A DNA stretch of 64,000 nt from Terriglobia bacterium (GCA_963664115.2 CAXWPJ010000011.1:1-64000), one strand, 5' to 3'. Positions 3,849 to 58,410 are shown, counted from the first letter of the stretch. Notes: generated from the letters alone by a model not told the origin. Program-made: numbers and translations.

Positions 3849-3904
3849 TGGAGGTGGGCTGAGGTCACGGCTTCGTGAGGAGGGCCACTTAACCCCCTTT
3901 AGAA

Positions 3905-3944: not shown

Positions 3945-4028
3945 CAGATTTCAGGCTTTTGAGGGGATAGAACGCCGCTTCACGGCACCGGCAGTAGCGT
4001 GTCCGAAGGCTAGAGAATATCCGAAGCA

Positions 4029-5445: not shown

Positions 5446-5485
5446 AGTTCAACGTCCGAGAAGATGATTTCTCAGGACTTGACCA
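5446..5485. repeat. 40-bp palindromic repeat copy with mismatched outer arms
   Basis: ttcaacgtccgagaagatgatttctcaggacttgacc. Confidence 0.9.
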
Positions 5486-5494
5486 AGCAAATCT

Positions 5495-5905
5495 ACGACA
5501 CCGTCAGCGCTCTGATAGTTGTCAGACCCCGCTTGTTCCGCTTATCCGCTCAACATGGGCAAGTTCACCAACTGGCTGGACGCGGGGCGGGTCGTGCTGA
5601 ACACGTTCCGGCTGTACGCCGAGTTCAACGGCACGCTGACGCCCATCACCGACAACGAGGCGTTGCGGGTGGCAACCGACGAGTACAACGCCATCGTGCG
5701 GGCAAGGGCATGAACGGTCAGCCCATACGCCGGACCACACCTTCGATCAGCTCACCATCGTCTGCTTCGCAGCCCAGTGGGTGGCGATGACGTCTGTCTG
5801 CTGACTGACAGGAAGCACATGTGCACTCTGGTGAAAAAGTATCCTCGATCGATCAACTTGCCAATGCCAGCAGAAGCTATTGCGGGTCAAGGGACGCCGC
5901 GTAAG
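5495..5905. repeat. 411-bp segment duplicated in inverted orientation at 33479-33889
   Basis: Direct comparison; near-identical ORF translations at both sites. Confidence 0.9.
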
Positions 5906-6923
5906 CAACAAGGTACAGCAAGTCTTCCGTACTGAGATCGGCAACGACCGGCGTCATCAGCTCAGACCACAGTCCCTTACGCGTGCCCTGCTGCATGTCA
6001 TACAACGCCCGCATGAGGTAACTGGCAGACCGACCCGCGATTCCAGGCAAGGGGCCGAGACCCTTCAGACCTGGACCGTGACAGATACTGCACTGCCCGG
6101 CCTCGGCCAATGCCCTACCCTTCTCGACCGCACCAACCGGAACATAAGCGATCCAGCCGGACCTCGGATTACGGTGCACCTCTGCGTGCTCGATATTCTC
6201 CGGGGTTTCAACGATACGCAGCCCGATCGGTTCAGTGCCCGACGTAGCAGCAGTAGCCTGGCACTCCGTGAAGATGTCGATTTCACAGTCCACTGGGAGA
6301 TAAATGCCCCCCAGCGTGTAGCTCTCGAATACGGTGTCGGTCTCCACGACCCGGACCCATGGCCTCCAAGGCTGTGCGCCGAAGTACTCGGCAGCAGCAA
6401 CGATCTCCTCTTCGGTCATGTTCTTCGCGATTTGGGTCATCGTCCGAGCGTTGTTCTTTCTCGGTTCTGAGCTATTCCTCAGATCGTTGCGAAAATCGTC
6501 CATCTGCTGGATGAAATACGAAACCGGTAAGCCCGCGACGCCAGCGTTCTCCGGGCGCCCCTGCCCATTGGGGTAGTGACAAAGCGCACACGCCCGCACG
6601 ACAGCGCCCTCCTCTGCCGTCCGACCGTTCGCAACGATGTCAGGCATCGGCGTTGGATGGTCGTCGGGATACCAGTCGGCGGGAGAGCGACCGCGAATCT
6701 GGGTGGCCGTGAACGTCCGGTCAGTATCGGGCAAGCTGAAGACCGTCCCATCCTCTTCCGGACGGGGAGGACGCGGCCCCAATGGGATGCCATAGGCCCA
6801 ATCAGGTCGCTCAGTCTGCACCAATGCTTGGCCGTTAGCCGATTGCTCGCTCTGGGCGCTCAATACGCCAACAACAACCACGGGCATCGCCAACAAGACA
6901 ACGAAACCTAGAATTTTCTGCAT
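5877..6923 (-). CDS. Di-heme cytochrome c4-like protein
   Basis: CALCH and CSICH heme motifs; signal peptide. Confidence 0.88.
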   Translation of the reverse strand: MQKILGFVVLLAMPVVVVGVLSAQSEQSANGQALVQTERPDWAYGIPLGPRPPRPEEDGTVFSLPDTDRTFTATQIRGRSPADWYPDDHPTPMPDIVANGRTAEEGAVVRACALCHYPNGQGRPENAGVAGLPVSYFIQQMDDFRNDLRNSSEPRKNNARTMTQIAKNMTEEEIVAAAEYFGAQPWRPWVRVVETDTVFESYTLGGIYLPVDCEIDIFTECQATAATSGTEPIGLRIVETPENIEHAEVHRNPRSGWIAYVPVGAVEKGRALAEAGQCSICHGPGLKGLGPLPGIAGRSASYLMRALYDMQQGTRKGLWSELMTPVVADLSTEDLLYLVAYAASLDPQ

Positions 6924-7121
6924 GACGTCCCTCCCTCCTGCTACTCCTTGCTACACGGCACTCCGCAGAACCGCGACCGGCATTGACAGGTTGATCCTAG
7001 CACGGCCATCGAGTCCCGTCCGAAGTGTATCAGCCTCGTCCCGACCTTGCCGAGATCAGTCCCATGACCATGGCCCGTTCTCAACCCAAATTGCCTCGAT
7101 CGCATCAGGCACGGTCATCCA

Positions 7122-7385
7122 GGTACTGTCAACTTACGGGTCCAAAGGTCGAACCTGTGCCAGATCGGCGCCGCTCGATCAGCCTACCGAGACCGCATTC
7201 CAAGTCGCAAAGGAACGGGCCCGAAGCATCTGGTGGTGAACCGCTTTTAGTCTGTGCCTTCCCAACGGGAAAAGATTCAGAACGACACCGTGAACTGAGA
7301 GGAAGAGTTGCGCCTGCCGTGGCGACTTGAACCGTCGCATCTGTCGCTCCCGTTGTCGGGTCGGTTGGTGTGGCCGTGCGGGCAC
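7122..7385 (-). pseudogene. IS6-family remnant: transposase C-terminus plus terminal inverted repeat
   Basis: HQPTRQRERQMRRFKSPRQAQ motif; GGTACTGTCAACTT end at 7122-7135. Confidence 0.75.
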
Positions 7386-7504
7386 TTCAAATCTGAGGAT
7401 GTTGTGGACACTGTCCGGGGAGGTTGAGCGAGAAGCGTGAGGGTCCTGAGAACCCGTTGAAGCAGCAAACGAAAAGTCCGAGCGCCTTTAACAGCTCTTC
7501 GCGA

Positions 7505-7544
7505 AGGTCAATGTCCGAGAAGATGATTTATCAGGACTTTACCG
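7505..7544. repeat. 40-bp palindromic repeat copy (GGTCAA arm type), next to a kinase-tail repeat at about 7551-7600
   Basis: ggtcaatgtccgagaagatgatttatcaggactttacc. Confidence 0.85.
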
Positions 7545-7643
7545 CGAAAATCAGAGAATCGGCACCCGTTCTTTTAGTTCTTCAAACCAACGTCAGGCTG
7601 TTTTATACGTTCACGTTCGCAGCTCCAACGCTCACCTCGAAGA

Positions 7644-7865
7644 TTACGAATTCTTCTGGTATGGAGATACCTTCGCCGCACTGTAATCAGAGCGATGCCC
7701 GCATTCAGATTCGCTGCAGGTGAGAAACAGCTGTGCCAGCGGCTCGAACGGACCGCGTCCTTCGGTTCGATCCAGACCGAACAAAATCGGCGAGTGGCAT
7801 TTCGCACAAAGCACACTCAAGTACCATCGCTTCTCAGTCGATTTTGGAAATCGGGAAAACTGCAT
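7644..7865 (-). CDS. Small putative Zn-ribbon protein, paralog of 43743-43994
   Basis: RWYLxVLCxxCxSPILF...LTCxxxECG..DYS shared by both copies. Confidence 0.7.
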   Translation of the reverse strand: MQFSRFPKSTEKRWYLSVLCAKCHSPILFGLDRTEGRGPFEPLAQLFLTCSESECGHRSDYSAAKVSPYQKNS

Positions 7866-7890
7866 AAGCACACGGTTTTGGAGGATCGCG

Positions 7891-8142
7891 CAATTCTCAA
7901 CGTCCGACAAGATGATTTCTCAGGACTTGAGAATGATTTTCACCTCTTTTGCCGGCCCCGCCAGCTGCAGCGGCTTGTTAGGCCCCAAACGTGGACCTCG
8001 ACCACCCGTGGAGCCTGGAGCGCCAGCGGAAGGCCGTCCACTGCATCCCGTGTTAGGCAATATTATTTTGCCCAAACAAGTTCATTGAGAATCGATACTC
8101 TGAGTAGGGCATGGCTCCATCTGTCATATTCCGAGTATCCCC
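7891..8142 (-). pseudogene. Inverted duplicate of the GNAT unit 3' end (55272-55523), cut off by IS256
   Basis: 252 bp near-identical; one end at the repeat, the other at the IS256 inverted repeat. Confidence 0.88.
7894..7933. repeat. 40-bp palindromic repeat copy
   Basis: ttctcaacgtccgacaagatgatttctcaggacttgagaa. Confidence 0.92.
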
Positions 8143-17461: not shown

Positions 17462-17501
17462 GGCTCAAGTCCTGAGAAATCATCTTGTCGGACGTTGAGA
17501 A
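17462..17501. repeat. 40-bp palindromic repeat copy
   Basis: ctcaagtcctgagaaatcatcttgtcggacgttgagaa. Confidence 0.92.
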
Positions 17502-17648
17502 ATGGTCGAAAGTCGGGCATCGACGCTTTTCTTGCGAACAACCCTCCCATGCAGATAGACTTACCAGAATTTCGCCGTTCTTTTTGGCGACGCACTAAAA
17601 CATGCAATCCGGCACACTACTTGGCCATTACGAAATGGGAGGACGCTC

Positions 17649-18704
17649 ATGGCAAATCGTAGAGACTTCTTAAGAACCGTCGGTTACGCGGGGGCTGGGA
17701 CCTTGCTGATGGGCGGCGCGTTCGGCGCACGGGCTCAGACCCCTCGCAAGGAAGTGTTTGTTGGCGGACGACGCACGACGGTCGTGGACATTCACGCTCA
17801 CTGTGCCTTTCATGACGAGCTCCGGGCTAGGCTTCCAAACGCGGCGCCTGAGGGACGCCGTGCCGTCCTGGGGCCAGACCGTTTGGAAGAGATGGACGCG
17901 CGCGGTATCGATATCCAGGCGCTCAGTATCAATCAATACTGGTGGTACGCGAGCGATCGTGGCCTCGCGGCCGAGATCGTCCGGATCCATGACGAGAGCC
18001 TCGCCGAATGGTGCTCCATGCACCCCGACAGGTTTGTCGCTCTCTCGTCCGTGGCGCTGCAGCATCCCGATCTCGCCGCGGAGCAGTTAGAGCACGCGAT
18101 CAACGAGTTGGGCCACCGTGGCGCGTCTGTGGGTGGAACGGTGCTCGGCGAGTCGAACGCCTTGGCCAAGTATGATCCGTTCTGGGCCAAAGCCGAGGAG
18201 CTCGGCGTGCCTGTGTTCATGCATCCAAACGACTCCTCCACCGTTCTCCGGGAAGGGGGGCTGCCGGCCGTCGGCAATCAGGGCAACATTATCGGCAATC
18301 CGCTCGAGACCACGGTATTCCTGACGAACCTGATCTTCGAGGGCGTGTTCGATCGCTTCCCGGGACTCAGAGTCTGCGGGGCGCACGGCGGTGGCTACCT
18401 GCCATCCTACTTCGGCCGCACCGAGGTCGCTTGCGCGCGGAACAACGCGAACTGCAAGAATCAGAAGCAGCCGAGTGCGTACCTGAGGGAGCAGATCATG
18501 GCCGACTCGATGGTCTTCTCGTCAGAGGCACTGCGACACCTGGTGGCCGAGATGGGCGTCAGCCAGGTCGTCTATGGATCCGATCAACCGTTCGCCTGGC
18601 CCGATACCGTGGATTTGATCGTAGATGCCGACTTCCTGAGCGATGCGGACAAAGAGGCGATCCTCGGCGGAAACCTGAGGCGGCTGTTGAAGATCGATTT
18701 GTAG
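17649..18704 (+). CDS. Tat-exported amidohydrolase (ACMSD-like)
   Basis: NRRDFL signal; DIHAH, FMHP, AHGGG, YGSD motifs. Confidence 0.88.
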   Translation: MANRRDFLRTVGYAGAGTLLMGGAFGARAQTPRKEVFVGGRRTTVVDIHAHCAFHDELRARLPNAAPEGRRAVLGPDRLEEMDARGIDIQALSINQYWWYASDRGLAAEIVRIHDESLAEWCSMHPDRFVALSSVALQHPDLAAEQLEHAINELGHRGASVGGTVLGESNALAKYDPFWAKAEELGVPVFMHPNDSSTVLREGGLPAVGNQGNIIGNPLETTVFLTNLIFEGVFDRFPGLRVCGAHGGGYLPSYFGRTEVACARNNANCKNQKQPSAYLREQIMADSMVFSSEALRHLVAEMGVSQVVYGSDQPFAWPDTVDLIVDADFLSDADKEAILGGNLRRLLKIDL

Positions 18705-18769
18705 ACTCGACAAAGCGCAGCAACTCCGAGCGCCCTTTGTGAGGGTACTGTCAACTTGGGCCACGACAA

Positions 18770-18826
18770 ATCAACGTCGTCCTGAACTGGTTTGAAGAAC
18801 TGAAGGAACGGGTGGCGGTTCCCTGA
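18770..18826 (+). repeat. Orphan kinase C-terminal tail (INVVLNWFEELKERVAVP*)
   Basis: Homologous to seven other copies; preceded by an isolated IS6-like end at 18744-18757. Confidence 0.8.
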
Positions 18827-18920
18827 GGCGTGTTTACGGCTCCTCTCCCATGAAAACGAAATCGGCTGTCACTAGTTACTACGCTGGTCATGGCGTTGAT
18901 CGCCGCGTTGCCGCCCCCGA

Positions 18921-19538
18921 ATGAAAGAACTGCTCGCCGTTGATGTTGCTCTGCTGCTACCAGAGGAAACAAACGAACTCTGCAAACGAATCAACACGGC
19001 TCTGGTGCAGGATGACCCCACAGGTTTTGCTTTTGACTCAACTCACTTTCCTCACGTTACGTTAGTTCAGCAGTTCGTCTTGAAATCGAACCTAGCCGCG
19101 CTATGCAGTGAAATAGAGAAAGTTTTGAAGGGCCGATCCCCGTTGCGACTACGGGCGTTAGAAACAGCTTTCGTCGGAACTCCAACGCTTCTCCGCATTG
19201 CGAAAACAAAAGCGTTAAGGCAGATTCACGACGATCTGGTGAACGCCTTAGCGGGGCTGTCCAAGTCGTGGGGTGACGGCAGTGCCTTCTTCTCACAAGG
19301 ACAGAGCGTTCAGGGCTGGGAGATCGAATACGTTACCGAATATCGGGAAGCCGCGAGCTTTGACAGGTATGACCCCCATGTCACCCTCGGCGTCGGTCGG
19401 AGCGAGATCCCAATGCAGCCGTTCTCCTTTACAGCCGATCTCGTCGGTTTGTACCAGCTGGGAAAATTCTGCACCTGTCGCCGACGGTTGCAGGAGTGGA
19501 GACTGAACTCTGCGACTCTCAACCCAGAATCGTCCTGA
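18921..19538 (+). CDS. 2H phosphoesterase (2'-5' RNA ligase family)
   Basis: Two HVTL motifs. Confidence 0.85.
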   Translation: MKELLAVDVALLLPEETNELCKRINTALVQDDPTGFAFDSTHFPHVTLVQQFVLKSNLAALCSEIEKVLKGRSPLRLRALETAFVGTPTLLRIAKTKALRQIHDDLVNALAGLSKSWGDGSAFFSQGQSVQGWEIEYVTEYREAASFDRYDPHVTLGVGRSEIPMQPFSFTADLVGLYQLGKFCTCRRRLQEWRLNSATLNPESS

Positions 19539-19683
19539 ACTGGTTTGAAGAACTGAAGGAACGTGTGCCGGTGCCGTAGTTTTCCTGGTCAAGTCCTGAG
19601 AAATCATCTTCTCGGACGTTGAGAACCCCCGTTTTTAGGCCTTTTCTCACTGTCCGAGAAGGTCCTTTATCAGGACCTGAGCT
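19529..19683. repeat. Kinase tail (19529-19579), repeat (19586-19625) and an inverted degenerate repeat (19644-19683)
   Basis: Direct sequence match to both repeat families. Confidence 0.85.
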
Positions 19684-19852
19684 TCTGATTGCCATCAAAC
19701 CCCGCCTCCGGTATCGTTTAGCGAGTTTTCAGCAGCTCGTCGCATAATAGTTCGAGATTCTTGAATACCACTACTCTCGGACGGCAGGCATCCAGATTGC
19801 CGTGGATGACCCTAGACGACTTCGTGATCACAGCGTGCCAAGGGGGCCAAGC

Positions 19853-20986
19853 ATGAACCGCAGGATTCCATTCGATTTCCTTCTGATCATTTTGGCGACA
19901 CTGGCCTGCGTCGGGTGCCAGGGGCCCCAGGAAACGGGGGTGGCCGTCGTCGACTCCGCATCACTGACGCCTCAAGTCCCAACGTTCCGGGTGGACCCGA
20001 ATTGGCCTCAGGTGCCTGCGCAGTGGAAGCTCGGTGACGTCTCGAGCATCGCGATCGATGCTGACGACAACGCATGGCTACTGCACCGCCCTCGAGTGCT
20101 TACGGGCGATGACGCCGCCATGGCCGCGCCGCCTGTGCTGGGGTTCGATCCCGAAGGCGTGTTCCTCAAGGCTTGGGGCGGGGCTGCGGCCGGTTATGAC
20201 TGGCCGCAGCGGGAGCACGGACTCCACATCGACCATCAAGGGTATGTCTGGCTCGGCGGCAACAACTGTGCTGCGCGGAACTTACCGGGACTTGAGCCGG
20301 TCGCCGACGATCAACTATTGAAATTTACGCTGGACGGCGAATTTGTCATGCAGATTGGCCAGAGCAACGCCAGCCGCGGGAACGCGGATACTCAAAATCT
20401 GCATGAGCCTGCGGATGCGTTCGTTCATCCAGCGACGAACGAGCTGTTCGTCGCCGACGGCTACGGTAACCACCGCGTCGCCGTCTTCGATGCCGAAACC
20501 GGCGCGTTCAAGCGTATGTGGGGTGCGTTTGGAAACGCACCGGAGGACGACGATCACTGTCCGAACATATCGCTCGATTCGGTGCCCGACGGACCCGGCC
20601 CGCAGCAGTTCAGCGTCGTCCATGCGCTTCGTGTGTCTAACGACGGCCTGGTGTATGTGGCGGATCGCGAGAACAGGCGCGTTCAGGTGTTCACGATCGA
20701 CGGCGAATATCTCGACCAGATCGTCTGGGGAGAAGCGCTATTCGCGCGTAACGTGGCCCTGTCGCCGGACCCGGAGCAGCAGTTCCTATACGTCGGAGGC
20801 GGGACGGGGATCATGGTGTTCGGGCGCCAGACGCTCGACCTGCTGACCACCATCGATGGAGAAGGCGTGATCGGCGCTGGCCACCAGATCCAGACTGACT
20901 CGCAGGGCAACCTGTATATTGCCGCAACGGGCGCCGGGTTTCAGCGGCTGATCTTCACGGGTATGTCACCAGGAGCAACCGAGTAG
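19853..20986 (+). CDS. NHL-repeat beta-propeller lipoprotein (peptidyl-alpha-hydroxyglycine lyase-like)
   Basis: FVADGYGNHRV and YVADRENRRVQVF repeats; lipobox-like signal. Confidence 0.82.
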   Translation: MNRRIPFDFLLIILATLACVGCQGPQETGVAVVDSASLTPQVPTFRVDPNWPQVPAQWKLGDVSSIAIDADDNAWLLHRPRVLTGDDAAMAAPPVLGFDPEGVFLKAWGGAAAGYDWPQREHGLHIDHQGYVWLGGNNCAARNLPGLEPVADDQLLKFTLDGEFVMQIGQSNASRGNADTQNLHEPADAFVHPATNELFVADGYGNHRVAVFDAETGAFKRMWGAFGNAPEDDDHCPNISLDSVPDGPGPQQFSVVHALRVSNDGLVYVADRENRRVQVFTIDGEYLDQIVWGEALFARNVALSPDPEQQFLYVGGGTGIMVFGRQTLDLLTTIDGEGVIGAGHQIQTDSQGNLYIAATGAGFQRLIFTGMSPGATE

Positions 20987-21071
20987 TGGAGTGGCTGTGA
21001 GGCGTCCATTTGATTGACGACGCAACGTGTGCCGGTTCTGTAAAGGTGGCCGTCCGTTCTTGCCTACCACC

Positions 21072-21088
21072 GAAATCCATTCTCAAGT
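21072..21088. repeat. Half repeat forming the 3' exon of the outer group II intron
   Basis: gaaatccattctcaagt is the reverse complement of acttgagaatggatttc (compare 2647-2663). Confidence 0.8.
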
Positions 21089-21119
21089 ATCGCGGTAGGG
21101 ATGCCGGTCACCCGGCACC

Positions 21120-23057
21120 ACCGGGTCGCCAGAGGCGGTCACCCGCCTCCGGCTCCCACAGAACGTAGCGTGCGGATTTCCCGCACTACGCTCTTCAGAA
21201 ACGGATTCACAACACAGCAAGAGACTGGAACTCCCGATACGGAAGCGCCAGCTTGGGCCGCTGCAACGGAAAGCGCGTCTTAATCCGGTTGAATACCTCC
21301 CACCGGACGTAACCAGCGCGACTCCGGCTGCTCAGCATCTTGCGCCAGTAACGCTCCACGACCCGAGCAACGTGCTGGAGGGCCCGGAAGTTTCCGGCGA
21401 TGCCGTAGTAGGCGTAGTGACCACGCAAGACCCGATTCAGATTCTGAACCTGCTCCCGGACCGGCAAGTGACGCATTCGTCTCATCAGATCGCGTAGATG
21501 GGCCAGACTGCGTTGAAGTCGAGACTTCTCAGTGCGCAATCCCACCCGGAAATTGCCTTTGCGATTCTGCGAGCAGTACAGGGTCATGCCCAGAAAGTAG
21601 ATCGTTTCTGGACGTTTTCTCCCGTGCTTGCCCGCATCCCGCTGAGCAAAGCGACCGAATTCAACGAGCTTTGTCTTTGTCGGTTCCAGAACCAGCCCAA
21701 ACTTTCCCAATCGCTTGCGCAGCACGTTCTGAAAACGAAGCGCATCGTCCCAATATTGGAAACACACCACAAAGTCGTCGATGTACCGCACCAGATAGGC
21801 TTCACCTTTCAGGTGTGGCCGGACCATCCGGTCAAACCACAGGTCGAGCACATAGTGCAGGTACAGATTGCTCAGCAGAACGCTGATCGACCCACCCTGT
21901 GGGGTTCCCTCATCGTTGGGATGCAATTCTCCGTCTTCGAACACCCCCGCCTTCAACCATCGTCGAATCAGGCTGATGATCCGCGGATCTCCGACTCGAT
22001 GCTCCACAAAGCGGAGTAGCCATCCATGGTCTAAACTCCCGAAAAAGTTCTTCAGGTCTGCCTCCAACACCCAACTCACCTTGCGCCCAGCAATCACCTC
22101 ATGCAGGGTTGCCAGTGCATAGTGCGCACCCAGCCCAGGCCGACCACCAAAAGAACAAGGCAAGAAGTCCTGTTCGTAGATGGCTGTCAGCACCTCGGCC
22201 ACGCTGCGCTGAAGGGCCCGATCTTGAACACAAGGCACGCCCAGGGGACGTTTCTCCTGTTTGCCGGGCTTGGGGATATACACTCGCCGAATCGGCGGTG
22301 CGCGATATCCCTTCCGGTGTACCGATTCGAGCATCGGCTCCACCCAGTCCCCGAATTCTTCCTTCGCCTCCGGCACTCTCTGGCCATCACATCCGGGAGC
22401 AGAGTTCCGTGGAATCGCACAAAGGCTCTTCCACACCCTCTCTCGGGTGACATGATGCGCCAGCGATGTGAACCGGAGCTTGGGTTCACTCCGAGCTTTC
22501 GCTGCTATTTGTTCCAGTTTCGTTTCCATGACTGGCAGTTCCTCTCGTTGTATAGAGGGCCGAATCCTCCCATTGAATGGAGCCCCTGTTTCCCTTGAAC
22601 AATTCCTCTTCCGCTGACCGCTTCCCCATGTGATCGGTTCTCCCGACCTCGGAGTACTATCAGTCAGTCTGACTTCCGCCAGGCCTTCGGGTTGTCCTCA
22701 CGTTGTGGGCTTGTCCAACCCTACAAGCTCCGCTTGAGCCTGACGGATCTCCCTTGTTCCCATGAAATCTCTCAGTTATATGCCGGCGGTACGAACCCCG
22801 GAAGCACCCCAGAACGCTTGCCATTGCACGCCCTGCGATTCCGCCTTCCCCATAGAGAGACAAGGTCGGCTACTTCAACCACGATCGATTTCGGGGCTAT
22901 CTTTCCGTTCACTTGCGTTCCGGCCTACTCCCTCCCTGTCTACGCTTCGCAGTGACCGTTACCGGCCCCCACGCAAGACTCGGTTCGTGGCTGCGGGCTA
23001 AGCTTTGCCACGGGCGCCATTTCAGGCGACTAGACTTCATGCGCTTTCAAGGCGCAA
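21120..23057 (-). mobile_element. Inner RT-encoding group II intron
   Basis: Starts TTGCG; D5 GAGCGTAGTGCGGGAAATCCGCACGCTACGTTC and D6 follow the ORF. Confidence 0.88.
21207..22529 (-). CDS. ltrA: Group II intron reverse transcriptase/maturase without an endonuclease domain
   Basis: RPLGVP, GTPQGG, RYIDDF, domain X (LRGHYAYY). Confidence 0.93.
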   Translation of the reverse strand: METKLEQIAAKARSEPKLRFTSLAHHVTRERVWKSLCAIPRNSAPGCDGQRVPEAKEEFGDWVEPMLESVHRKGYRAPPIRRVYIPKPGKQEKRPLGVPCVQDRALQRSVAEVLTAIYEQDFLPCSFGGRPGLGAHYALATLHEVIAGRKVSWVLEADLKNFFGSLDHGWLLRFVEHRVGDPRIISLIRRWLKAGVFEDGELHPNDEGTPQGGSISVLLSNLYLHYVLDLWFDRMVRPHLKGEAYLVRYIDDFVVCFQYWDDALRFQNVLRKRLGKFGLVLEPTKTKLVEFGRFAQRDAGKHGRKRPETIYFLGMTLYCSQNRKGNFRVGLRTEKSRLQRSLAHLRDLMRRMRHLPVREQVQNLNRVLRGHYAYYGIAGNFRALQHVARVVERYWRKMLSSRSRAGYVRWEVFNRIKTRFPLQRPKLALPYREFQSLAVL

Positions 23058-23516
23058 CCCCGCGCAGATCCGTACGTGCGGATACTGCATACGGCTCCTA
23101 CTTCGGATGAATAGCGGTACACACGACGTACCGCACACCGCACAACCCCTGCGTCACGAAGAGCCCGCTCTGAGTCGGGATCGTGGGGAATTCGAACGAT
23201 GTTCTCCTCGGTCCGCGGCCTTCCCTCCCCCTCCTCCGCCGAGTACGGGGCCTCTTTGTTCGGCCGGTTAAAAGGTACAACGACGCGGTCAGACTTCTCC
23301 CGGGCGTACACGTCCGTCGTGCGGACTTGGCCTTCACGGACCGGTCTGGATCGTGCGACCCAGACACCCAGGAGATCTCCCGGATCTCGCGCATGTTGTT
23401 TCTCAGCGTGCGCGTCGTGTTGCCTTCCCCTTATCACGAGAGAGTCGGCATCCTTAGCACGGGTCTTAGACTACCGAGGACCGACAGACCATTTGCGATT
23501 TAACGCAGCCTATGGA

Positions 23517-23918
23517 CTACTTGACAAAGATCTCCATGATGTCCACCGGGGACGCAAGGATGTTACGGAAGCCGTGTAGCGTGCCTGCGTTCATATAGTA
23601 CGGCTGCCAGGGTGGCACCTCTACGGACTGGCCGCCTTCGAGGTCCAGCGTCATCGGGCCCGTAATCGGTACGAAAAGGTGGAATTTTACGTCATCGTGG
23701 GAGTGAATCACCCGCGCCCCACCAGACTCTACTCTAACCCGGAGCGCACGAACTTCCGGTTGATCACGTAGCACTGCATTGCTCACGCCTACGTTCCCGG
23801 TACCGGTGAGCGGCAGGAGCGGAATCGTGCGGTTGCCCGTCACGACTGTGGTTTGTGCCGCCAGGGCGACCAGGGAAAGCGACACGAGGCCGATCAAGAG
23901 AACGGTGAATCGTCGCAT
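23517..23918 (-). CDS. Secreted cupin-domain protein
   Basis: HSH and GTLHGFRN cupin motifs; signal peptide. Confidence 0.75.
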   Translation of the reverse strand: MRRFTVLLIGLVSLSLVALAAQTTVVTGNRTIPLLPLTGTGNVGVSNAVLRDQPEVRALRVRVESGGARVIHSHDDVKFHLFVPITGPMTLDLEGGQSVEVPPWQPYYMNAGTLHGFRNILASPVDIMEIFVK

Positions 23919-24228
23919 GGAGTCCTCCATAAAGTAAGTTGCTGACTCACTGCAGGGAATTATATTGAGCAACGCGGATTGATACTTACAGCGTTAACCC
24001 GTCACCCTCGTAATATAAACGAGCGGAGAGCCAATACGAGGCATTTCCGATTAGTTTACACTCGCGTGAGGACCAAGGAACGCTTGTGCTTCTACCGGTA
24101 CCTAATTAAGACTGAGCACCACGAACTCGGCTGGTGTAGCCCGTCACAGCATTTCGTACAGAAACCACTAAACAACTAGGAGGCACTTTTCTAATCTGAA
24201 TGATCTCCAGGAGGACCGAAAGCCACAA

Positions 24229-24322
24229 GTCCTGAACTGGTTTGATGAACTGAAGGAACGGGTGCCGGTCCCCTGATTTTCGAGGTCAAGTCCTGAGAAA
24301 TTACCTTCTCGGACATTGAGAA
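24229..24322. repeat. Kinase tail (24229-24276) plus palindromic repeat (24283-24322)
   Basis: gtcctgaactggtttgatgaactg...ccctga then ggtcaagtcctgagaaattaccttctcggacattgagaa. Confidence 0.88.
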
Positions 24323-28798: not shown

Positions 28799-28968
28799 AG
28801 GAAAATCTCCTGTGTGGTGCTCGTTACGTGCGCGAGTTCTTCGGAGCGAATCTATAACTGTTGTGGACCGATTTCAAGGAGTTTTGACCCAGCCCCCGCA
28901 GGGTGTTTAAACAGCCGAAGGTGTTGGTACCCTGTAAATCGGCAATTCTCAACGTCCGACAAGATGAT

Positions 28969-30509
28969 CTATGAAAGGGGATGTCAAGAGAAACAGCTCC
29001 CCGATGGCCGGCCAGACGGACACTTTTGTCGTGACAGCCAGCCCCTCTACCGTTATGTGAAGCCCTGGTTCCGGCAATCCGCAGCGAAATCGTACATCTT
29101 TAAGACGGTCGATTCAGAAACTGAACAGCATATGGGACGGCATGTGCCGACCATGGATCTATCTGAGCCTCGAAGGCTATCGCTGTTTCAGGTCGTGCGA
29201 GGGGGGATAGAGATTTAAAAGTGTCCTCTGGACGTATCCAGGGACCACATCTTGTGCAGATCCTCACCCTCGATCCTCAGTTGTTCCGACTCCGTCTAAC
29301 GACTCAGTACGGCTCTACCGGTCACGGATCGAAACGGCTTATGTTGTCATCCAGCTCAGTTTCTTTGGATCGAACGATTCTCCTTTCTTCCAAAGCGTCA
29401 GCACCAGTGCGGCGATCTTACGGGCCAGAGTGACCCGCGCCATTTCCTCCCGCATCCCACGCATCTGGAGACTCTCCAGATAAATCCGATACGGCTCGCT
29501 TTGTTTTCCCGATGCCGCGGCTGAGAAGAACACCGACTTCAATCGCCGGTTGCAGTTCGCATTCAATCCGCGTGTGGCCACCGGTTTCCTCCGTCGCACC
29601 ACACGTCCACTCTGCATCTCATACTCCGCGCTCATGTGGGTCACCACACCCAGGCCACTGTAGCTCCAGAACTGCGGTGTCGTGCGGAATCGGTACGGCG
29701 TGTCCACGATGGCGACGATCTGTGCCGCCCGAACCGGTCCCAGTTGTGGAATGGTCTCGAGCAGTTTCACCGCCTCATGGTGCCGGCCCTCCACTCGCAC
29801 CGCTTTTCTGGATTGTTTCCGCAGCAACTGGACCTGGTCCAGTTCCGCATACAACCATCGGGCGCGCTGCCTCATCCCCGGCTCGGTCAGCTTCTCCAAC
29901 CACTGTTCGCGCTGACTCGGCCGATAGACTCCGTCCTTCGGTGTCGGGATCCCCCGTCCCCGGTATATCGCTTTGATCCGCGACATCACCCGTTGCGTGT
30001 CCAACTGGAACGTGTCATAGGCCTGCACCAGTTGCTTCAATTCTCGCGTCGCTTCATGGCCGTGATACACCGAGCGCAACAGTCCCACCCGCAACAGCTC
30101 GGCCAGCTTCCGCGCATCCGGCTTATCCCCCTTCGACCCTTCTTGCATCCACTTGTTCTGTCGCGGATCGCACACCACCACCTCGCTCACCCACGGCCGG
30201 ATCACTTCCGATAACCAGCCCGCTTGCGTGGTCTCCTCCAACCCCACGTGCATCGGCCCACTCAATCCCTCCAGCAGCCGTGTGATACTCCCCGCCTCGG
30301 TTTCCACGATCGTTTCAAACACCAGTTTGCCGCTCCCGTCTCTCACCGCAACCACCGTCGTTGCCTGGTGCACATCCATACCCATATACTTGTCTTGTTT
30401 CATCTCGAACGCTCCTTTTCTGGGATCAACGCTGTATACGTTGATCAGGTTGTTGAGTGAGTCTTCTCTCAACAACCCCCAGTCTAGGGGCGTCCTTTCA
30501 TACTGCGAT
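28969..30509 (-). mobile_element. IS1111-A copy 2 (transposase 29339-30403), in a repeat split into 28946-28968 and 30510-30526
   Basis: Same ends, core and insertion position as copy 1. Confidence 0.93.
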
Positions 30510-39570: not shown

Positions 39571-39779
39571 ATCCTTCCCGCCTTGGGGAGTGATTCGCAA
39601 ACGCCGCCCAGCAGGCTGACCGGAATCAGGGCACACATAGTCTAGTCGTTGTAACTTAAAATTAACCTCTCTGGCATCATATCAATGCGAGGCGGATAAG
39701 CGGTATAAGCAGGGTCTGACGACTATGGTAGCGCTGACAGTGTCGTAGATTTGCTTGGTCAAGTCCTGTATCTGGACTC

Positions 39780-40076
39780 CTCTGTCAAGTAGGCGCAGCT
39801 CTCCCGTCAGCTTTCTTCGGCAAAATGCATTCAGCAGGACTGACTAGAAGTTACGAGGTGAGTAGCTAGTCGACTGCACCCGTATCTTCGGCCTCAAAAG
39901 TGGAACTGTATTGTTCCGGGCCATGATGGAAATTTGCGCGCGGGGAGCCAACCGATAAAATAACGGCCTCTAAGGGCCAAAGGACTTGTCGGCGTTGCCC
40001 CGCGCCGGTCTGACCGGTACGCCATCATCTCGAACCTCATCGCAGCTCGCTGAAAAGATATTCCGACTGTTCCGGG
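39780..40076 (-). ncRNA. Predicted bridge/seek RNA of IS1111-B
   Basis: Internal loop at 39952-39992 carries CAAGTCCT and TTTAT, matching the two target halves. Confidence 0.68.
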
Positions 40077-41121
40077 TCAGGCCGCCTGATACCGGGCCTG
40101 ATGGTCACAGTCACGGTTCCAAACCGCCCACACGCGACGCGCCAACTTGTTGGCCAGTGCAACGATTGCCTTGTTGTGTCCGCGGAACTCGTGTTTCTGG
40201 AGACCCCATTGCTGGAGAGGTGTCGGTGTGGCGCCCTCTCGATGGGCACTCCACAACAGGGAACGGCCCCCATGAACCAACAGCATCCGGAGGTAACGAT
40301 CGCCTTGCTTACTGATCCGGCCCATGCGTCGCTGGTTGCCACTGGAATGTTCCCGGGGTGTGAGTCCCAGATAACTGGCAAAATGGCGGGACGTTCGGAA
40401 TCGTTTGATGTTTCCAACAAACCCCACCATTGCCGTTGCCGTTAACAGGCCGATGCCGGGAATCGACGTCAGACGCGCGACCTCAGGCATCTGCCGAGCC
40501 AGCGTCTTCAACTCTTGTTCCACCGATCGTAAGCGAGATTCCAATTCACGGATCTCGCCACACACCTGGTGAAACATCTCCCGAACGACACTGGGGATGA
40601 CGACATCTGCATCTTCGATCAGCTCCATTACCCCCGGCACCAGATGATCCGCTCCGGTCGGGATCACGTAGCCAAACTCCCGTAACAACCCCCGCACCGT
40701 ATTGATCCGTGCGGTTCGGGTTCGCATCCACGCCGAACGGATTCGATGCAATGAGGTCAGTTGCTGTTGGGCCAGGGTTTTGACCGGCACTGGATGAATA
40801 TCGCTGTCACGATAGGCTTCCAACAATCCTTTCACATCCGTACGGTCGGTCTTGTTGCGCCTGACGTAGGGCGTCACATACTGCGGCGAGATCAGAACGA
40901 CCGTGTGTCCCAGTTCCCGGATCTTCCGACCCCAGTAATGGGCGGATCCGCAGGCTTCCATCACCACGGTCGCCAGCTCCTGGTTCGCAAAGAACCCCAG
41001 AAACTTTGCCCGACTTAAACGATAGGTTTTCTCTACATGTTTTCTCTACACCGGGGCGATCTGAAACACCAATTTGGAAAACATTCTTTGCCAGATCCAC
41101 TGCTATCGTTCTATTCTTCAT
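40077..41121 (-). pseudogene. IS110 transposase frameshifted by a short tandem duplication
   Basis: VDLAKNVFQ in one frame, MEACG...KTDRTD...SSG in another; gttttctctaca duplicated at about 41026-41050. Confidence 0.85.
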
Positions 41122-41369
41122 CTCGGACTCCTTTTTGTTCACACTCACGTGTTTCGCCCGCTTTATTGCGAGGCTCAAAATGACTGTGGCACTTCGATGC
41201 CGACTCAGTCATCAAAGAGGAGTCCATACCATCAATAAACGACATTGTCGGACAGTGAGAATTGGCGAGCTGAGCGTGTCGCCACATTCCATTGAAACAG
41301 CATGGGATATGGCCAATTGGAGGCCATTCGAGGAACGGCAGGCGAGAGGAGAGTTTCCGTTCGGTGAAA

Positions 41370-41409
41370 TTCTCAATGTCCGAAAAGATGATTTATCAGG
41401 CGTTGAGAA
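41370..41409. repeat. 40-bp palindromic repeat copy
   Basis: ttctcaatgtccgaaaagatgatttatcaggcgttgagaa. Confidence 0.88.
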
Positions 41410-53328: not shown

Positions 53329-54772
53329 GAGTTATTGTCAAAAGTGGTGTTTAGGAGATTGATTCAAGCGGCGGCCTGATCGACTTGTGTCGCTTCGACA
53401 CCATCGTTGAATTTCACTCCGATGATTACCTTGCTCAGATCATCGAATCCTCGTAATCGTCGCCAATTGTTCTCAGCGCACTGGCCCAGTTTGAACATCA
53501 TGTGCAGCATGCCATCCCGTGCCCAGTTTGAACATCATGTGCAGCATGCCATCAGCCGTCGCGTTCGGGGGCTTCTCTTCCAGTGCAACCTCTGGATCGC
53601 TTCGTTCGGTGTCGAATGGTGGCAAAGGTCGACTCAATGGGATTCGTCGTTCTGATGCTCTGCCAGTGCTTGGCCGGAAAGTCGTAAAAGGCCAGCAGTT
53701 CCTCTCTGTCTTTCTGCAGGCAGAGTGTGGCTTTCGGATACTTCGGTTCATAGGTTTCAATGAACAAGTCGAATGCCTTCTCGGCGTCTGCCTTCGTCTC
53801 GGCCTGCCAGATCGAGTGCAGGGCCTGTTTCGCCTTCGCCTGGACCGACTTGGGCAGGCAGTTGAGGACGTTCATGACTTTGTGCATCCAGCAACGTTGT
53901 TGACGTGTCTCGGGATAGATTTCCTCCAGTGCGGCCCAGAACCCCATCGCACCGTCACCGATGGCCAACTTCGGAACATTCATCCCACGGGACTTCAGCT
54001 TCAACAAGACCTCGCGCCAACTCTGTGTCGATTCCCGTACACCGTCTTCGATCGCCAGGAAACGCTTCTCTCCGCGTTCATTCACGCCGATCACGACCAA
54101 TGCACACAACTTGGTTTGTTCCGCCCGAAGTCCGCTGTAGATGCCGTCGGCCCAGACATAGACCCAGCGATCTGCATCCAAACGCTCCTCGCATCCGAGG
54201 CGGTACTGTTCGCCCCAAACCTGTTTCAACCGCGATACCGTGCTCGCCGACAGACCCTGCGCCTGGGGACCGACAAGAACTTTTAGGGCCTCACCCATCT
54301 CGCCGCTGGAAACGCCTTTCAAATACAACCACGGCACCGCTGCTTCCAGCGACTTCGTCTTCCGAATGTACGGTGGTACCAGGGCCGATCGGAACGTCAC
54401 AGCTTCGCCCGTCTTGGCACGGACCTTCGGGATTTGGACTGTTACCGGACCCAATCCCGTCTGCAGTTCGCGTTCCGGCAGATAACCGTTGCGTACCACC
54501 CCGGCGTTTCCTGTCTCAGTTCGCCGGCCACCGTGCTGGGATAGCAGCTCTGCCAATTCGGCTTCCACTGCGCGTTGGATCAGTTGCTGTGCCCCAACTC
54601 GTAGTAGTTCTGTTACTGGATCCTCAATCGTTTCTCGACCTTCCGGTCCATTCACGTTACTCTTGCTCACAGTGGCGTATCTCCTATGGTTGCTTTGAAG
54701 TTTTGTCACAACAAATCAACCAGATACGCCGCTCTTATTCAATCCCTCAAACACCAGATTCGGTTATAACTC
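53329..54772 (-). mobile_element. IS256 copy 4, disrupted by a net 59-bp composite insertion
   Basis: 1444 bp versus 1385 bp; ORF diverges after KRSRGC. Confidence 0.92.
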
Positions 54773-54806
54773 AGTCCTGAGAAATCATCTTGTCGGAAGT
54801 TGAGAA
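54773..54806. repeat. Palindromic repeat copy clipped by IS256
   Basis: agtcctgagaaatcatcttgtcggaagttgagaa. Confidence 0.88.
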
Positions 54807-54857
54807 AAAAGAAGGGAAAATTTCTTATCGAGTTCCAGATAATCGTAGTTAGGCCAG

Positions 54858-55361
54858 ATGAACTGCGAAACGATCAGACGAGCGTACAACTCTGATTCCC
54901 CACGGATAATTTCGCTCATAGCCGACGTCTATCGAGAGTACGGCGACGAGATCTATCTAGAAGGAGCGGACAAGGATCTAGTTGATATTGAAGGATATTA
55001 CCGACAGGTAAGCGGGGATTTTGTCATATTGGAAAGGAATGACGAAATCGCAGGAACGCACGCCGTACTCCCGCTTGACCTAGCGAACCGCGTCATAACC
55101 TTCAGACGGCTGTACCTTCGGCAGGAGTTGCGTGGGTCGGGTTGCGGAAAGCGGTTGATGAAATGGGCAATCGATTGGTCGATGCGCGAAGGCTATCACT
55201 CAGTAGAGTTTTGGTCTGACATACGATTCCAACGGGCACACAGGTTCTTTCAGCAATTAGGTTTCACGAAAGGGGATACTCGGAATATGACAGATGGAGC
55301 CATGCCCTACTCAGAGTATCGATTCTCAATGAACTTGTTTGGGCAAAATAATATTGCCTAA
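54858..55361 (+). CDS. GNAT N-acetyltransferase
   Basis: RRLYL..ELRGSGCGK motif A; AHRFF..LGF. Confidence 0.88.
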   Translation: MNCETIRRAYNSDSPRIISLIADVYREYGDEIYLEGADKDLVDIEGYYRQVSGDFVILERNDEIAGTHAVLPLDLANRVITFRRLYLRQELRGSGCGKRLMKWAIDWSMREGYHSVEFWSDIRFQRAHRFFQQLGFTKGDTRNMTDGAMPYSEYRFSMNLFGQNNIA

Positions 55362-55480
55362 CACGGGATGCAGTGGACGGCCTTCCGCTGGCGCTCCAGG
55401 CTCCACGGGTGGTCGAGGTCCACGTTTGGGGCCTAACAAGCCGCTGCAGCTGGCGGGGCCGGCAAAAGAGGTGAAAATGA

Positions 55481-55520
55481 TTCTCAAGTCCTGAGAAATC
55501 ATCTTCTCGGACGTTGAGAA
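55481..55520. repeat. 40-bp palindromic repeat, consensus copy
   Basis: ttctcaagtcctgagaaatcatcttctcggacgttgagaa. Confidence 0.95.
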
Positions 55521-55567
55521 TTGGATTTCACCACTTTTCGGGACCAATCACCACAGCTAGTGACCAT

Positions 55568-55930
55568 ATGAGCCTATCCAGCGCGACCCCTATTCTTAGA
55601 ATCTTCGACGAAGCAAAAGCGAAGGAATTCTATGGCTCTTACTTGGGGTTTTCCGTGGACTGGGAGCATCGGTTTGGTGATGAGTTCCCTCTGTACATGC
55701 AACTGTCCAAAGATAACTGCGTCCTTCATCTTTCCGAACACCACGGCGACGGGACGCCAGGGAGCGCGATTCGCATCGAAACTGATGACGTTGGTGCTTT
55801 GAATCAAGAACTACTGGACAAGGCCTATCGATACGTGAAGCCAAGCGTCGAAGAGAAACCGTGGAACACAAAAGAGATGACGATCACCGATCCGTTTGGC
55901 AATCGATTGATCTTTTTCGAGAACGAATAG
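55568..55930 (+). CDS. Glyoxalase/bleomycin-resistance superfamily protein
   Basis: EFY..YLGF.VDWEHRF, HLSEHHGD, DPFGNRL. Confidence 0.88.
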   Translation: MSLSSATPILRIFDEAKAKEFYGSYLGFSVDWEHRFGDEFPLYMQLSKDNCVLHLSEHHGDGTPGSAIRIETDDVGALNQELLDKAYRYVKPSVEEKPWNTKEMTITDPFGNRLIFFENE

Positions 55931-55942
55931 CCCTGAAATCCG

Positions 55943-55982
55943 TTCTCAAGTCCTGAGAAATCATCTTCTCGGACGTTGAACT
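55943..55982. repeat. 40-bp palindromic repeat copy
   Basis: ttctcaagtcctgagaaatcatcttctcggacgttgaa. Confidence 0.93.
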
Positions 55983-56005
55983 CCAGACTGGTACTCTCTT
56001 CAGTA

Positions 56006-56917
56006 ATGCCTACCGGTAAACCTTGGCTACCTGAGCATATCGTGATGCCAGATGCGGCCGTTCGTCTGATCGAAAGCCAATTCCCGGAGCTTCGACCTGC
56101 GCATATCCAACTTCTAGGTGAGGGTTGGGACAATACGGCCTACGTAGTGAACAGGACTTGGGTTTTCCGGTTTCCTCGCCGAGAGATAGCGGTGGAACTG
56201 CTGCAGACGGAAACTCGCGTCCTTCCTCGAATTGCAGCTCAGTTGCCTTTCCCTATCCCAGTACCAAGATGGGTTGGTAAGCCAACACAAGAGTATGATT
56301 GGCCGTTTGCGGGCTATCGCTTTCTTCCAGGCACCACGGCACTGAGTGTTGGATTGACGCGAGAGCAGAGGAAGGAACTTGCTGCTCCCTTAGCGAATTT
56401 CTTAGCAACTCTACATGCCATTGATCCGGGAGATCTGGAAATTCCGGGAGATAAATTTGGCCGAGCTGACATGGGAAAACGTATTCCACAGTTGCTCTCA
56501 AGTCTTCTGACGATTCGAGGAAAGGGATTGGTTGCTGACGTTTCACCTTGGGAACGGATCGTTGAACAGATGTCATCGGACTTTCAACCGCGGTTGAACA
56601 CATTGTCACACGACGATTTTTCAGCGGAGCATATCCTTGTGGACAACTTTGGACTGCCAAGCGGCGTGATTGACTGGGGCGACATCCACCTAGGAAGCCC
56701 CAGTATGGATTTGGCTATTGCGTTCGGTTTTCTGCCACCCGAGGGTCGCGAAGTATTTTGGGATAGCTATGGAGCCGTCGAAAAGCCGATCCAAATCATG
56801 GCGCGATTTCGTGCTCTCCACGCCGCCGTCATTGGTGTCCTATATGGCGATGATATTGGCGACACTGCTCTCCTGCGCGAGAGCTTATTGGGGATGGACT
56901 TCGCGATAGAGTCGTGA
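56006..56917 (+). CDS. Aminoglycoside phosphotransferase (APH) family kinase
   Basis: GEGWDN, VFRFPR, HDDFSAEHIL, IDWGD. Confidence 0.88.
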   Translation: MPTGKPWLPEHIVMPDAAVRLIESQFPELRPAHIQLLGEGWDNTAYVVNRTWVFRFPRREIAVELLQTETRVLPRIAAQLPFPIPVPRWVGKPTQEYDWPFAGYRFLPGTTALSVGLTREQRKELAAPLANFLATLHAIDPGDLEIPGDKFGRADMGKRIPQLLSSLLTIRGKGLVADVSPWERIVEQMSSDFQPRLNTLSHDDFSAEHILVDNFGLPSGVIDWGDIHLGSPSMDLAIAFGFLPPEGREVFWDSYGAVEKPIQIMARFRALHAAVIGVLYGDDIGDTALLRESLLGMDFAIES

Positions 56918-56959
56918 CCGAGACAATTCCTAGAACTAGACTACGGGAAGTCAGTCCGC

Positions 56960-58344
56960 GAGTTATTGTCAAAAGTGGTGTTTAGGAGATTGATTCAAGC
57001 GGCGGCCTGATCGACTTGTGTCGCTTCGACACCATCGTTGAATTTCACTCCGATGATTACCTTGCTCAGATCATCGAATCCTCGTAATCGTCGCCAATTG
57101 TTCTCAGCGCACTGGCCCAGTTTGAACATCATGTGCAGCATGCCATCCCGTGTCAGGCAACCTCTGGATCGCTTCGTTCGGTGTCGAATGGTGGCAAAGG
57201 TCGACTCAATGGGATTCGTCGTTCTGATGCTCTGCCAGTGCTTGGCCGGAAAGTCGTAAAAGGCCAGCAGTTCCTCTCTGTCTTTCTGCAGGCAGAGTGT
57301 GGCTTTCGGATACTTCGGTTCATAGGTTTCAATGAACAAGTCGAATGCCTTCTCGGCGTCTGCCTTCGTCTCGGCCTGCCAGATCGAGTGCAGGGCCTGT
57401 TTCGCCTTCGCCTGGACCGACTTGGGCAGGCAGTTGAGGACGTTCATGACTTTGTGCATCCAGCAACGTTGTTGACGTGTCTCGGGATAGATTTCCTCCA
57501 GTGCGGCCCAGAACCCCATCGCACCGTCACCGATGGCCAACTTCGGAACATTCATCCCACGGGACTTCAGCTTCAACAAGACCTCGCGCCAACTCTGTGT
57601 CGATTCCCGTACACCGTCTTCGATCGCCAGGAAACGCTTCTCTCCGCGTTCATTCACGCCGATCACGACCAATGCACACAACTTGGTTTGTTCCGCCCGA
57701 AGTCCGCTGTAGATGCCGTCGGCCCAGACATAGACCCAGCGATCTGCATCCAAACGCTCCTCGCATCCGAGGCGGTACTGTTCGCCCCAAACCTGTTTCA
57801 ACCGCGATACCGTGCTCGCCGACAGACCCTGCGCCTGGGGACCGACAAGAACTTTTAGGGCCTCACCCATCTCGCCGCTGGAAACGCCTTTCAAATACAA
57901 CCACGGCACCGCTGCTTCCAGCGACTTCGTCTTCCGAATGTACGGTGGTACCAGGGCCGATCGGAACGTCACAGCTTCGCCCGTCTTGGCACGGACCTTC
58001 GGGATTTGGACTGTTACCGGACCCAATCCCGTCTGCAGTTCGCGTTCCGGCAGATAACCGTTGCGTACCACCCCGGCGTTTCCTGTCTCAGTTCGCCGGC
58101 CACCGTGCTGGGATAGCAGCTCTGCCAATTCGGCTTCCACTGCGCGTTGGATCAGTTGCTGTGCCCCAACTCGTAGTAGTTCTGTTACTGGATCCTCAAT
58201 CGTTTCTCGACCTTCCGGTCCATTCACGTTACTCTTGCTCACAGTGGCGTATCTCCTATGGTTGCTTTGAAGTTTTGTCACAACAAATCAACCAGATACG
58301 CCGCTCTTATTCAATCCCTCAAACACCAGATTCGGTTATAACTC
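56960..58344 (-). mobile_element. IS256 copy 5 with 9-bp target duplication TCAGTCCGC
   Basis: Duplication at 56951-56959 and 58345-58353. Confidence 0.95.
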
Positions 58345-58370
58345 TCAGTCCGCACGGTAGATGATCTAAC

Positions 58371-58410
58371 CGCTCAAGTCCTGAGAAATCATCTTCTCGG
58401 ACGTTGAGAA
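58371..58410. repeat. 40-bp palindromic repeat copy
   Basis: ctcaagtcctgagaaatcatcttctcggacgttgagaa. Confidence 0.93.

Follow-up and report, generated by a model that had tools for sequence, protein, structure and literature searches.

Each attC site of an integron carries RYYYAAC and GTTRRRY cores and is about 57 bp or longer, while REPINs are inverted doublets of REP sequences, associated with RAYT and carrying a foot of the GTAG/GGAG type. Insertion sequences of the IS1111 group that are guided by a seekRNA (ISEc11, ISPa11, ISKpn4 and ISPst6) have a DEDD transposase of 330-350 aa, 11-13-bp repeats with 7/3 extensions and a 3' non-coding region, insert without target duplication, and include a natural case of reprogramming, from ISEc11 to ISXne4 (PMC11187229; Siddiquee et al. 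2024). In the bridge RNA of IS621, two guides flank a hairpin within an internal loop (Durrant et al. 2024, PMC11208160). IS1111-attC elements and group IIC-attC introns converge on the junction of integron cassettes (PMC11187229, PMC3001079). The dif modules (pdif sites) of Acinetobacter have a 6-bp spacer flanked by unequal arms, undergo exchange where spacers are alike, bracket genes with inverted sites and form multi-module arrays, and they draw in insertion sequences such as the IS1202-family dif hunters (PMC13141974, PMC10132070, bioRxiv 2022.12.17.520857, PMC12907356). Comparisons with all of these papers refer to the portions of their text available to us.

The window (the whole stretch of 64,000 nucleotides that was analysed; features in Table 1) contains element B, which is a further member of the well-described IS1111 family: transposase type and length, ends, 3' non-coding region, guide order, fixed insertion and lack of a target duplication all agree with the seekRNA elements above. 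An earlier note on this DNA had placed here, at 39756-41261, an IS1111 element with different ends and a divergent transposase from those of a first one, element A. This was confirmed, the transposase of B being 23% identical to that of A (of which the genome has seven genes), and the larger span being that of B together with its split target. The inverted repeats of B match between the ends at 11 of 12 positions, a TTGACA hexamer lies by the right end, at 39783-39788, and the transposase residues D9, E52, D89, D92 and S257 are present. Five of the seven copies compared encode the full 344 aa; the copy on C3 stops at 267 aa, and the window copy alone carries a 10-nt duplication (near 41040-41050) that shifts the frame. 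Since intact copies exist, one of them at C10:234727-236184, the frameshift repair that had been proposed is unnecessary. The B transposase is also a distant match to those of IS621 and ISCro4 (E about 3e-11), and its loop likewise places two guides around a hairpin; compared with the accessible description of IS621 (PMC11208160), however, B has its RNA in the right end, long subterminal repeats, a reversed guide order and no core common to ends and target. What distinguishes B from the described seekRNA elements is a new target and retargeting both in single-base steps and between arms, with a guide RNA that is here a predicted one.

Table 1. Features of the window and their positions (contig names C2, C6 and C10 refer to the genome, G000)
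Feature	Position	Strand	Remarks
Element A, IS1111-type, second copy	1097..2637	-	matching empty site at G000 C6:45056
Site-to-site cassette, about 1255 bp	2654..3907	-	also at C2:264335-265589 with other neighbours
Four head-to-tail S1 sites (3908, 5449, 7508, 7897)	3908..7930	-	
Site-to-site cassette, 355 bp	7542..7896	-	also at C10:252510-252864 with other neighbours
S1 sites 17465, 19589, 24286 (+); inverted S2 site 19647 (-)	17465..24319	+	
Element A, IS1111-type	28968..30508	-	inserted in site spacer; own guide loop near 29200-29271
First 10 nt of X arm of split target (B right flank in element orientation)	39759..39768	+	
Element B, IS1111-type insertion sequence	39769..41234	-	1466 bp here; 1458 bp in intact copies
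B right end	39769..39783	-	12-bp subterminal inverted repeat (39772-39783) and 3-nt extension
B 3' non-coding region, predicted seek/bridge RNA	39784..40076	-	293 bp
Predicted donor-matching stretches	39882..39929	-	
Predicted target-binding loop	39952..39993	-	first guide 39980-39988, inner hairpin 39964-39978, second guide 39955-39960
B DEDD transposase gene	40077..41121	-	PF01548 and PF02371; frameshifted in window copy
B left end	41216..41234	-	7-nt extension (41228-41234) and 12-bp subterminal inverted repeat
Remainder of B-split site	41235..41258	+	last 4 nt of X arm, S2 spacer ACGACA 41239-41244, Y arm 41245-41258
Intact S1 site, inverted, 114 bp beyond B-split S2 site	41373..41406	-	recurring S2-S1 pair
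Four head-to-tail S1 sites (54770, 55484, 55946, 58374)	54770..58407	+	

The target of B is a 34-bp site in which a 6-bp spacer separates two 14-bp arms, X and Y, with AA-N6-TT at its centre. Genome-wide, B enters between CAAGTCC(T/C)G and ATAAA in all ten right ends at X arms and all seven intact left ends, at one position and in one orientation, which bears out the previously proposed insertion at the ATAAA bond about 5 nt from the site used by A. The flanks of B rejoin to the consensus site, with no target duplication. The ATAA variant of the site was found at 7 of 7 left junctions and at 38 of 174 free sites (p about 2e-5), and no empty allele was found for the six B copies for which one was sought. 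In the window copy the flanks are mosaic, the left one occurring elsewhere at S1 sites (2 of 2) and the right one at S2 sites (3 of 3), which suggests flank exchange across it. By analogy with known IS1111 biology, B would excise as a circle whose joined ends drive transcription, and its insertion would make no duplication. A promoter across the joined ends was considered and found unconvincing (TTGACA 12 bp from TATGAT and 17 bp from TGGTAT), and no end-to-end joint was seen in the assembled contigs of four public runs; joints in these contigs have fewer than 35 letters per side and possibly come from other copies. Apart from these copies, the X arm up to the B bond, followed by TAT (the 3-nt extension of B) and then by unrelated sequence, occurs at 32426 (minus strand) of the window and at C1:108667, C2:751245, C6:137763, C9:908937 and C12:163474; such stubs are possible footprints of one-sided or imprecise B events.

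The predicted target-binding loop of B lies on the minus strand as the earlier note had written, running from stem through an 11-nt strand, a hairpin and a second strand to the closing stem (CCG/CGG). The pairing with the flanks was refined: the first guide is complementary to the right flank at 8 of 9 positions, and the second guide, TTTTAT followed by CG, agrees with the left flank (ATTTAT in element orientation) at 5 of 6, a stronger match than had been stated. The expected partner of the first guide is the top strand at the right flank, and that of the second is the bottom strand at the left flank; this order, the top-strand complement lying 5' of the bottom-strand match, is that of IS1111 seekRNAs in the accessible part of PMC11187229. 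A 96-nt region around the loop folds at -37.2 kcal/mol (z -2.1), and the folding of the whole 307-nt non-coding region is unremarkable (z -0.36). Among aligned relatives, two-sided changes were present in 9 of 23 pairs of the inner hairpin and long-range stems; the CCG/CGG closing stem was not recovered from them by RNAalifold. Two stretches are predicted to match the donor: CCATCAT (39923-39929), the complement of the joined B ends, would pair with 40021-40028, and AGATA, near 39883-39887, would correspond to the right end.

Homologs of B and their flanks, the collection of which had been proposed as a check, were gathered from metagenomes and from genomes of the family. Seventy loci entered the guide test and 59 of them, in 26 guide groups, had a parsed loop and flank (the other 11 were dropped), while the use of 80 genome loci with 37-49% identity, and of most of the 76 from metagenomes, was confined to end anatomy and the tree. 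Guides covary with targets across the 59 loci: first guides agreed with their own target at 7.15 of 9 positions as against 4.39 after permutation (maximum 5.5 in 5000), where the score accepted either register because that of the first guide shifts by one base between subgroups, and second guides agreed at 4.05 of 5 as against 2.14 (maximum 3.2 in 5000). The guide groups are related to each other, so these permutations give no formal probability. A stricter loop parser led to the same result; poor fits were L197 (3 of 9), L086 (4 of 9) and L182 (5 of 9), and L230 was mis-parsed. Moreover, second guide and flank switch together by single bases, from TTTTAT with ATTTAT to TTTTCT with ATTTCT (L193, L202) and ATTTAA with ATTTAA (L183). 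Elements with the first guide of B were found in four related genomes and three metagenome contigs, where they occupy the bond of the repeat that B itself uses, and insertion of same-loop homologs into unrelated sequences, which the earlier note had named as a refutation, was not seen. Relatives with other guides sit elsewhere, at sequences that match their own guides: for example, guide CAACGTCCG occurs in 11 copies in one relative (G024), all at the mirror bond of the Y arm, where a fragment (B') at C10:272093 is found too. Thus the guides match their own bond, which supports a predicted target-binding loop that would steer B. We are highly confident that B is an IS1111-type element occupying a single, fixed bond in a multicopy site of 34 bp, with guides predicted to steer its DEDD transposase.

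In the tree, two supported groups of X-arm elements arise from an unresolved fork, and Y-arm elements occur in two other places. Relatives at 49-55% identity flank cores of the GTTRRRY type and have guides that start with TAAC; descent of B from this attC-targeting clade was considered but is not supported, as the attC-flanked relatives form a sister clade to that of B and not its parent. Other palindromes are also entered by this family. Four relatives at 78% in G019 (L185, L194, L209, L213) have entered another palindrome, which combines a CGGAC arm with an S2-like centre and in one case adjoins an IS30 end; it perhaps represents a sister family of sites. Distant metagenome IS1111 relatives (L108, L111, L114, L118, L123, L127) insert in a palindrome with GTCCGC...GCGGAC arms.

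The site itself occurs 174 times in the genome (G000) at up to five arm mismatches, compared with none in a block-shuffled genome (one at six mismatches). Two spacer classes account for most copies, S1 (ATCATC; 130) and S2 (ACGACA or ACGACC; 20); a third spacer, ATCCGG, was observed in relatives (G023 C16:290201 and C14:135632; G026 C41:218327; L240). The earlier note had called the motif abundant and conserved. Abundance holds here, as it does for 75 copies in G024 (fixed-spacer search) and 57 in G025, but the other six of the eight relatives that have the site hold 1-12 copies (12 in G026, then 5, 2, 2, 1 and 1; free-spacer search, as for G025). Conservation holds within the family but not beyond it, the site being present in 0 of 400 genomes of the phylum outside the family and in 0 viral contigs. 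A literature search found no description of the site; supplements, which may list further IS1111 targets, and subscription journals were outside its scope. Among public data, three runs of one study labelled sponge metagenome contain 62-65% of the words of the window; RNA runs contain a small share of them and show no expression, and missing coverage of a cassette (3942-5448) in one public run carries no evidential weight.

Neighbouring sites follow an orientation rule: at distances below 8 kb in the genome and in stretches of its relatives, S1-S1 neighbours were direct in 145 of 148 cases, while S1-S2 neighbours were inverted in 51 of 51. Every S1-S1 cassette starts with Y and ends with X, and genes in short cassettes are mostly co-oriented (54 versus 16). 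Replication-strand bias accounts for orientation only poorly, the association with local GC skew being weak (25 of 37 clusters). Cassettes also travel: besides the two in Table 1, a 681-bp cassette was found site-to-site on C12, again on C2, and in G026 (90%). A common kinase-end upstream flank precedes 54 of 180 sites and is followed by many different downstream flanks, 45 of 58 site pairs have only one flank in common, and the spacer was the same in all 21 one-flank pairs. Low-copy duplications have 21 of 174 ends at sites, and sites make up 0.2% of the genome (a genome-wide share). Several whole-cassette matches inside C6/C11 and contig-end duplications may be strain or assembly overlaps; long duplications at 99.8-99.9%, often at contig ends, are C6:1-46165 (versus the window), C2:1-14093, C5:1-11221 and C9:1-14285. 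We attempted to place the crossover by arm variants (X 10 and Y 12 differences in upstream-shared pairs, X 13 and Y 13 in downstream-shared ones), which failed because variants do not track the flank on their own side; a crossover inside the spacer thus receives no support from them.

An X arm follows 94 of 122 kinase C-terminal motifs and a site precedes 24 of 53 N-terminal motifs; S2 often lies reversed ~80-90 bp before a gene for a Ser/Thr kinase with a beta-propeller, and S1 ~10 bp after its stop codon, most sites in general lying just after stop codons. Such a gene, bracketed by an inverted S2 and an S1, would be exchanged as a module.

Elements other than A and B also enter the site, and the convergence of unrelated elements on it is wider than these two: i) A cuts the spacer in 8 of 8 left ends, 5 nt from the B bond, in the opposite orientation and with the 7/3 end rule, and among A relatives the loop covaries with the target likewise; ii) relatives of B use the Y arm; iii) an IS30-like element (HTH_38 and rve) has 22 of 30 ends adjoining an arm, with a 2-bp duplication at the spacer centre; iv) ORF-less group II introns (Rfam) lie in 3 of 3 cases at the Y-arm bond used by the G024 elements; v) elements combining an integrase with an IS91-type (Y2) transposase have a site or half-site at the integrase-side end, within about 60 bp by eye, in 8 of 8 cases, two of which end exactly at the spacer edge. 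The ends of these IS91-like elements look like hybrid recombination sites. The claim of independent convergence was therefore borne out. Each insertion, on the other hand, breaks an arm or the spacer, and the site behaves like a rearrangement junction; the proposed "safe site" was not supported. Invaders would gain intergenic landing sites that multiply by themselves, while breaking the one they enter. The introns (~690 nt) are at C12:17035, 20172 and 564490 (minus strand; L167), and the IS91-like elements (with an integron-like integrase, PF13495 and PF00589) at C1:92986, C1:108535, C2:196511, C12:36210, C12:159058, C12:487047, C12:570110 and C3:3008. In relatives, sites with two invaders were observed (L216, L271, L084), and a B relative in G025 (L198/L206) sits in sequence that is empty at the end of an IS91-like element in G016 (L283).

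Evidence pointing to a tyrosine recombinase comes from the layout of the site, its two classes of spacer, the orientation rule and the fact that cassettes travel. The site resembles dif modules in having AA...TT inner ends around a 6-bp spacer between unequal arms, in genes bracketed by inverted sites, in multi-module arrays, in the insertion sequences drawn in and possibly in like-spacer exchange. It differs from pdif, as far as the accessible text of those papers describes it (PMC13141974, PMC10132070, bioRxiv 2022.12.17.520857, PMC12907356), in its 14-bp arms far from the host XerD arm, in its 170 chromosomal copies, in neighbours that are mostly direct and not alternating (alternation holds for S1-S2 only), and in invaders that cut inside the site and not 5 bp outside. 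Like the sites of an integron or CALIN array, its direct repeats delimit mostly co-oriented genes that recur in other arrays; unlike attC, it is 34-45 bp long and resembles one attC core but not the other, and its arrays have no integron integrase beside them. The site likely works in the manner of dif modules or integron cassettes as a member of neither, nor of REP/REPIN.

Arms X and Y would thereby bind recombinase subunits, and circles with one S1 site would integrate at other S1 sites to give head-to-tail arrays. The first candidate enzyme would be the host XerC/XerD, the only pair of tyrosine recombinases found in all four same-genus relatives, and the second the integrase of the IS91-like elements. 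The host dif (C2:108118-108145) lies near the GC-skew maximum of C2, with a single copy in 10 of 35 family genomes; the Y arm agrees with its C-side arm at 6.9 of 11 positions and the X arm with the XerD arm at 5.1 of 11, while the XerD arm is nearly invariant in pdif sites, according to the parts of two papers at hand (PMC10132070, PMC13141974). No dedicated recombinase could be tied to the site in the genome and its relatives. A tyrosine recombinase at C5:52189-53139 was rejected as cognate enzyme, being present in 9 of 35 family genomes and not found in G024 or G025, as was the integron integrase, which is 196 kb from the nearest site. The latter is a true integron integrase (C9:714608-715549; L157) with attC-like sequences of its own, by eye, apart from the repeat arrays. 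The gene of the rejected tyrosine recombinase (316 aa) is flanked, within C5:52062-53267 (L160), by a pair of identical S2 sites in inverted orientation, with the kinase-upstream flanks duplicated; the segment could be invertible. Recombination by a tyrosine recombinase is weakened as an explanation by the arm variants that ignore their own flank, by a search in which no dedicated enzyme emerged and by the poor match of X to dif. On balance we lean slightly towards the view that a tyrosine recombinase runs a gene-cassette system with this site as its recombination junction. Taken jointly, B guided to its fixed bond and the site as such a junction are, to our judgement, probable by a modest measure. 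The fullest account goes further, to an undescribed chromosomal cassette system with two non-interchangeable spacer classes, arrays without integron integrase and a kinase beta-propeller family multiplied to more than 100 gene ends, with three neighbouring bonds settled by RNA-guided IS1111 lineages, at least three of them and each programmed separately, as well as by IS30, group II intron and IS91-like elements; this we offer tentatively, as just short of an even proposition.

The site could instead be a REP/REPIN-like hairpin repeat spread by an HUH transposase of the RAYT type, neutral as a landing site in the sense of the proposed "safe site", with arrays reshuffled by homologous recombination. 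It is, like REP/REPIN, a family-restricted imperfect palindrome of ~35-45 bp, intergenic and hit by IS110/IS1111, with short inverted pairs (58 and 148 bp spacing) that resemble REPIN doublets; an S1 site can fold into a hairpin as DNA (-12.8 kcal/mol), and a preference for hairpins is known from group II introns and from IS1111 elements (ISPa11, in the accessible part of PMC11187229). Homologous recombination between 34-45-bp repeats could yield the same break points, and it agrees with a crossover that could not be placed in the spacer. However, changes at the variable stem pair are not compensated (p 0.56), an S1-like hairpin is absent from the S2 example, and the loop falls in two fixed classes with a strict orientation rule. 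Copies are mostly single and head-to-tail over tens of kb, delimiting shared genes, with the weak link to GC skew noted above. Of two Y1 transposase genes at C10:490-493 kb, one has a degenerate site about 260 bp upstream, but neither is bracketed by the repeat as a RAYT gene would be. Overall this origin appears unlikely, though it deserves serious weight. The lack of stem compensation, the near-palindromic arms and the free position would also fit a double-stranded binding site, namely an operator for a dimeric protein tied to the kinase family and copied with kinase gene ends, its abundance then exploited by invaders. The tight linkage to kinase gene starts and ends speaks for it, but the position of most sites just past stop codons, the breaks in homology at sites and the movement of unrelated genes from site to site make an operator very improbable.

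The S1-S1 cassettes, running from Y to X with arms that are near mirror images, could also be gene modules with the arms as terminal repeats and the 6-bp spacer as a target duplication, moved in trans by a site-specific DDE or rolling-circle transposase with the IS91-like element and its integrase as autonomous partner. The site or half-site at the integrase-side end of all eight such elements, and their presence within about 500 bp of the lone sites of G016 and G018, agree with this. On the other hand, half-sites retain the AA before the spacer, as arms would, the integrase was not found in G025 (57 sites; genome 95% complete), and G026 has 20 IS91-like elements but 12 sites. We regard terminal repeats as improbable. 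As regards B alone, the match of its loop could be incidental and the target found by structure or protein contacts. RNA-run contigs do cover B patchily, but covariation over 26 guide groups, the single-base switches and the like pattern in A relatives leave this hardly credible.

The relatives of B provide a natural series for single-base guide reprogramming. If a recombinase does act on the site, its arrays would join integrons and dif modules as a third kind of cassette array, one that follows a simple, testable rule (direct for like spacers, inverted for unlike ones) and is tied to a large expansion of eukaryote-like kinases in an uncultured bacterium. The meeting of an IS1111 element and a group II intron at a cassette junction would parallel the attC targets of IS1111-attC elements and group IIC-attC introns (PMC11187229, PMC3001079, in the parts accessible to us), but at a site that has neither attC cores nor attC length. 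This would extend the pattern of attC and pdif, in which RNA- and protein-guided elements converge on the recombination junctions of others, and by virtue of such convergence guide loops would be usable to find further cassette systems.

The window holds two further features. A near-identical 1385-bp element with a 428-aa transposase, which we take to be IS256-like, occurs in about 50 copies genome-wide and here at 8143-9527, 10149-11533, 12462-13846, 53329-54772, 56960-58344 and 62151-63535; its identity with element A was considered and rejected, as it has its own 428-aa transposase. Just upstream of the B site, at 37656-39570, lies a gene pair for a molybdopterin oxidoreductase and a cytochrome c.
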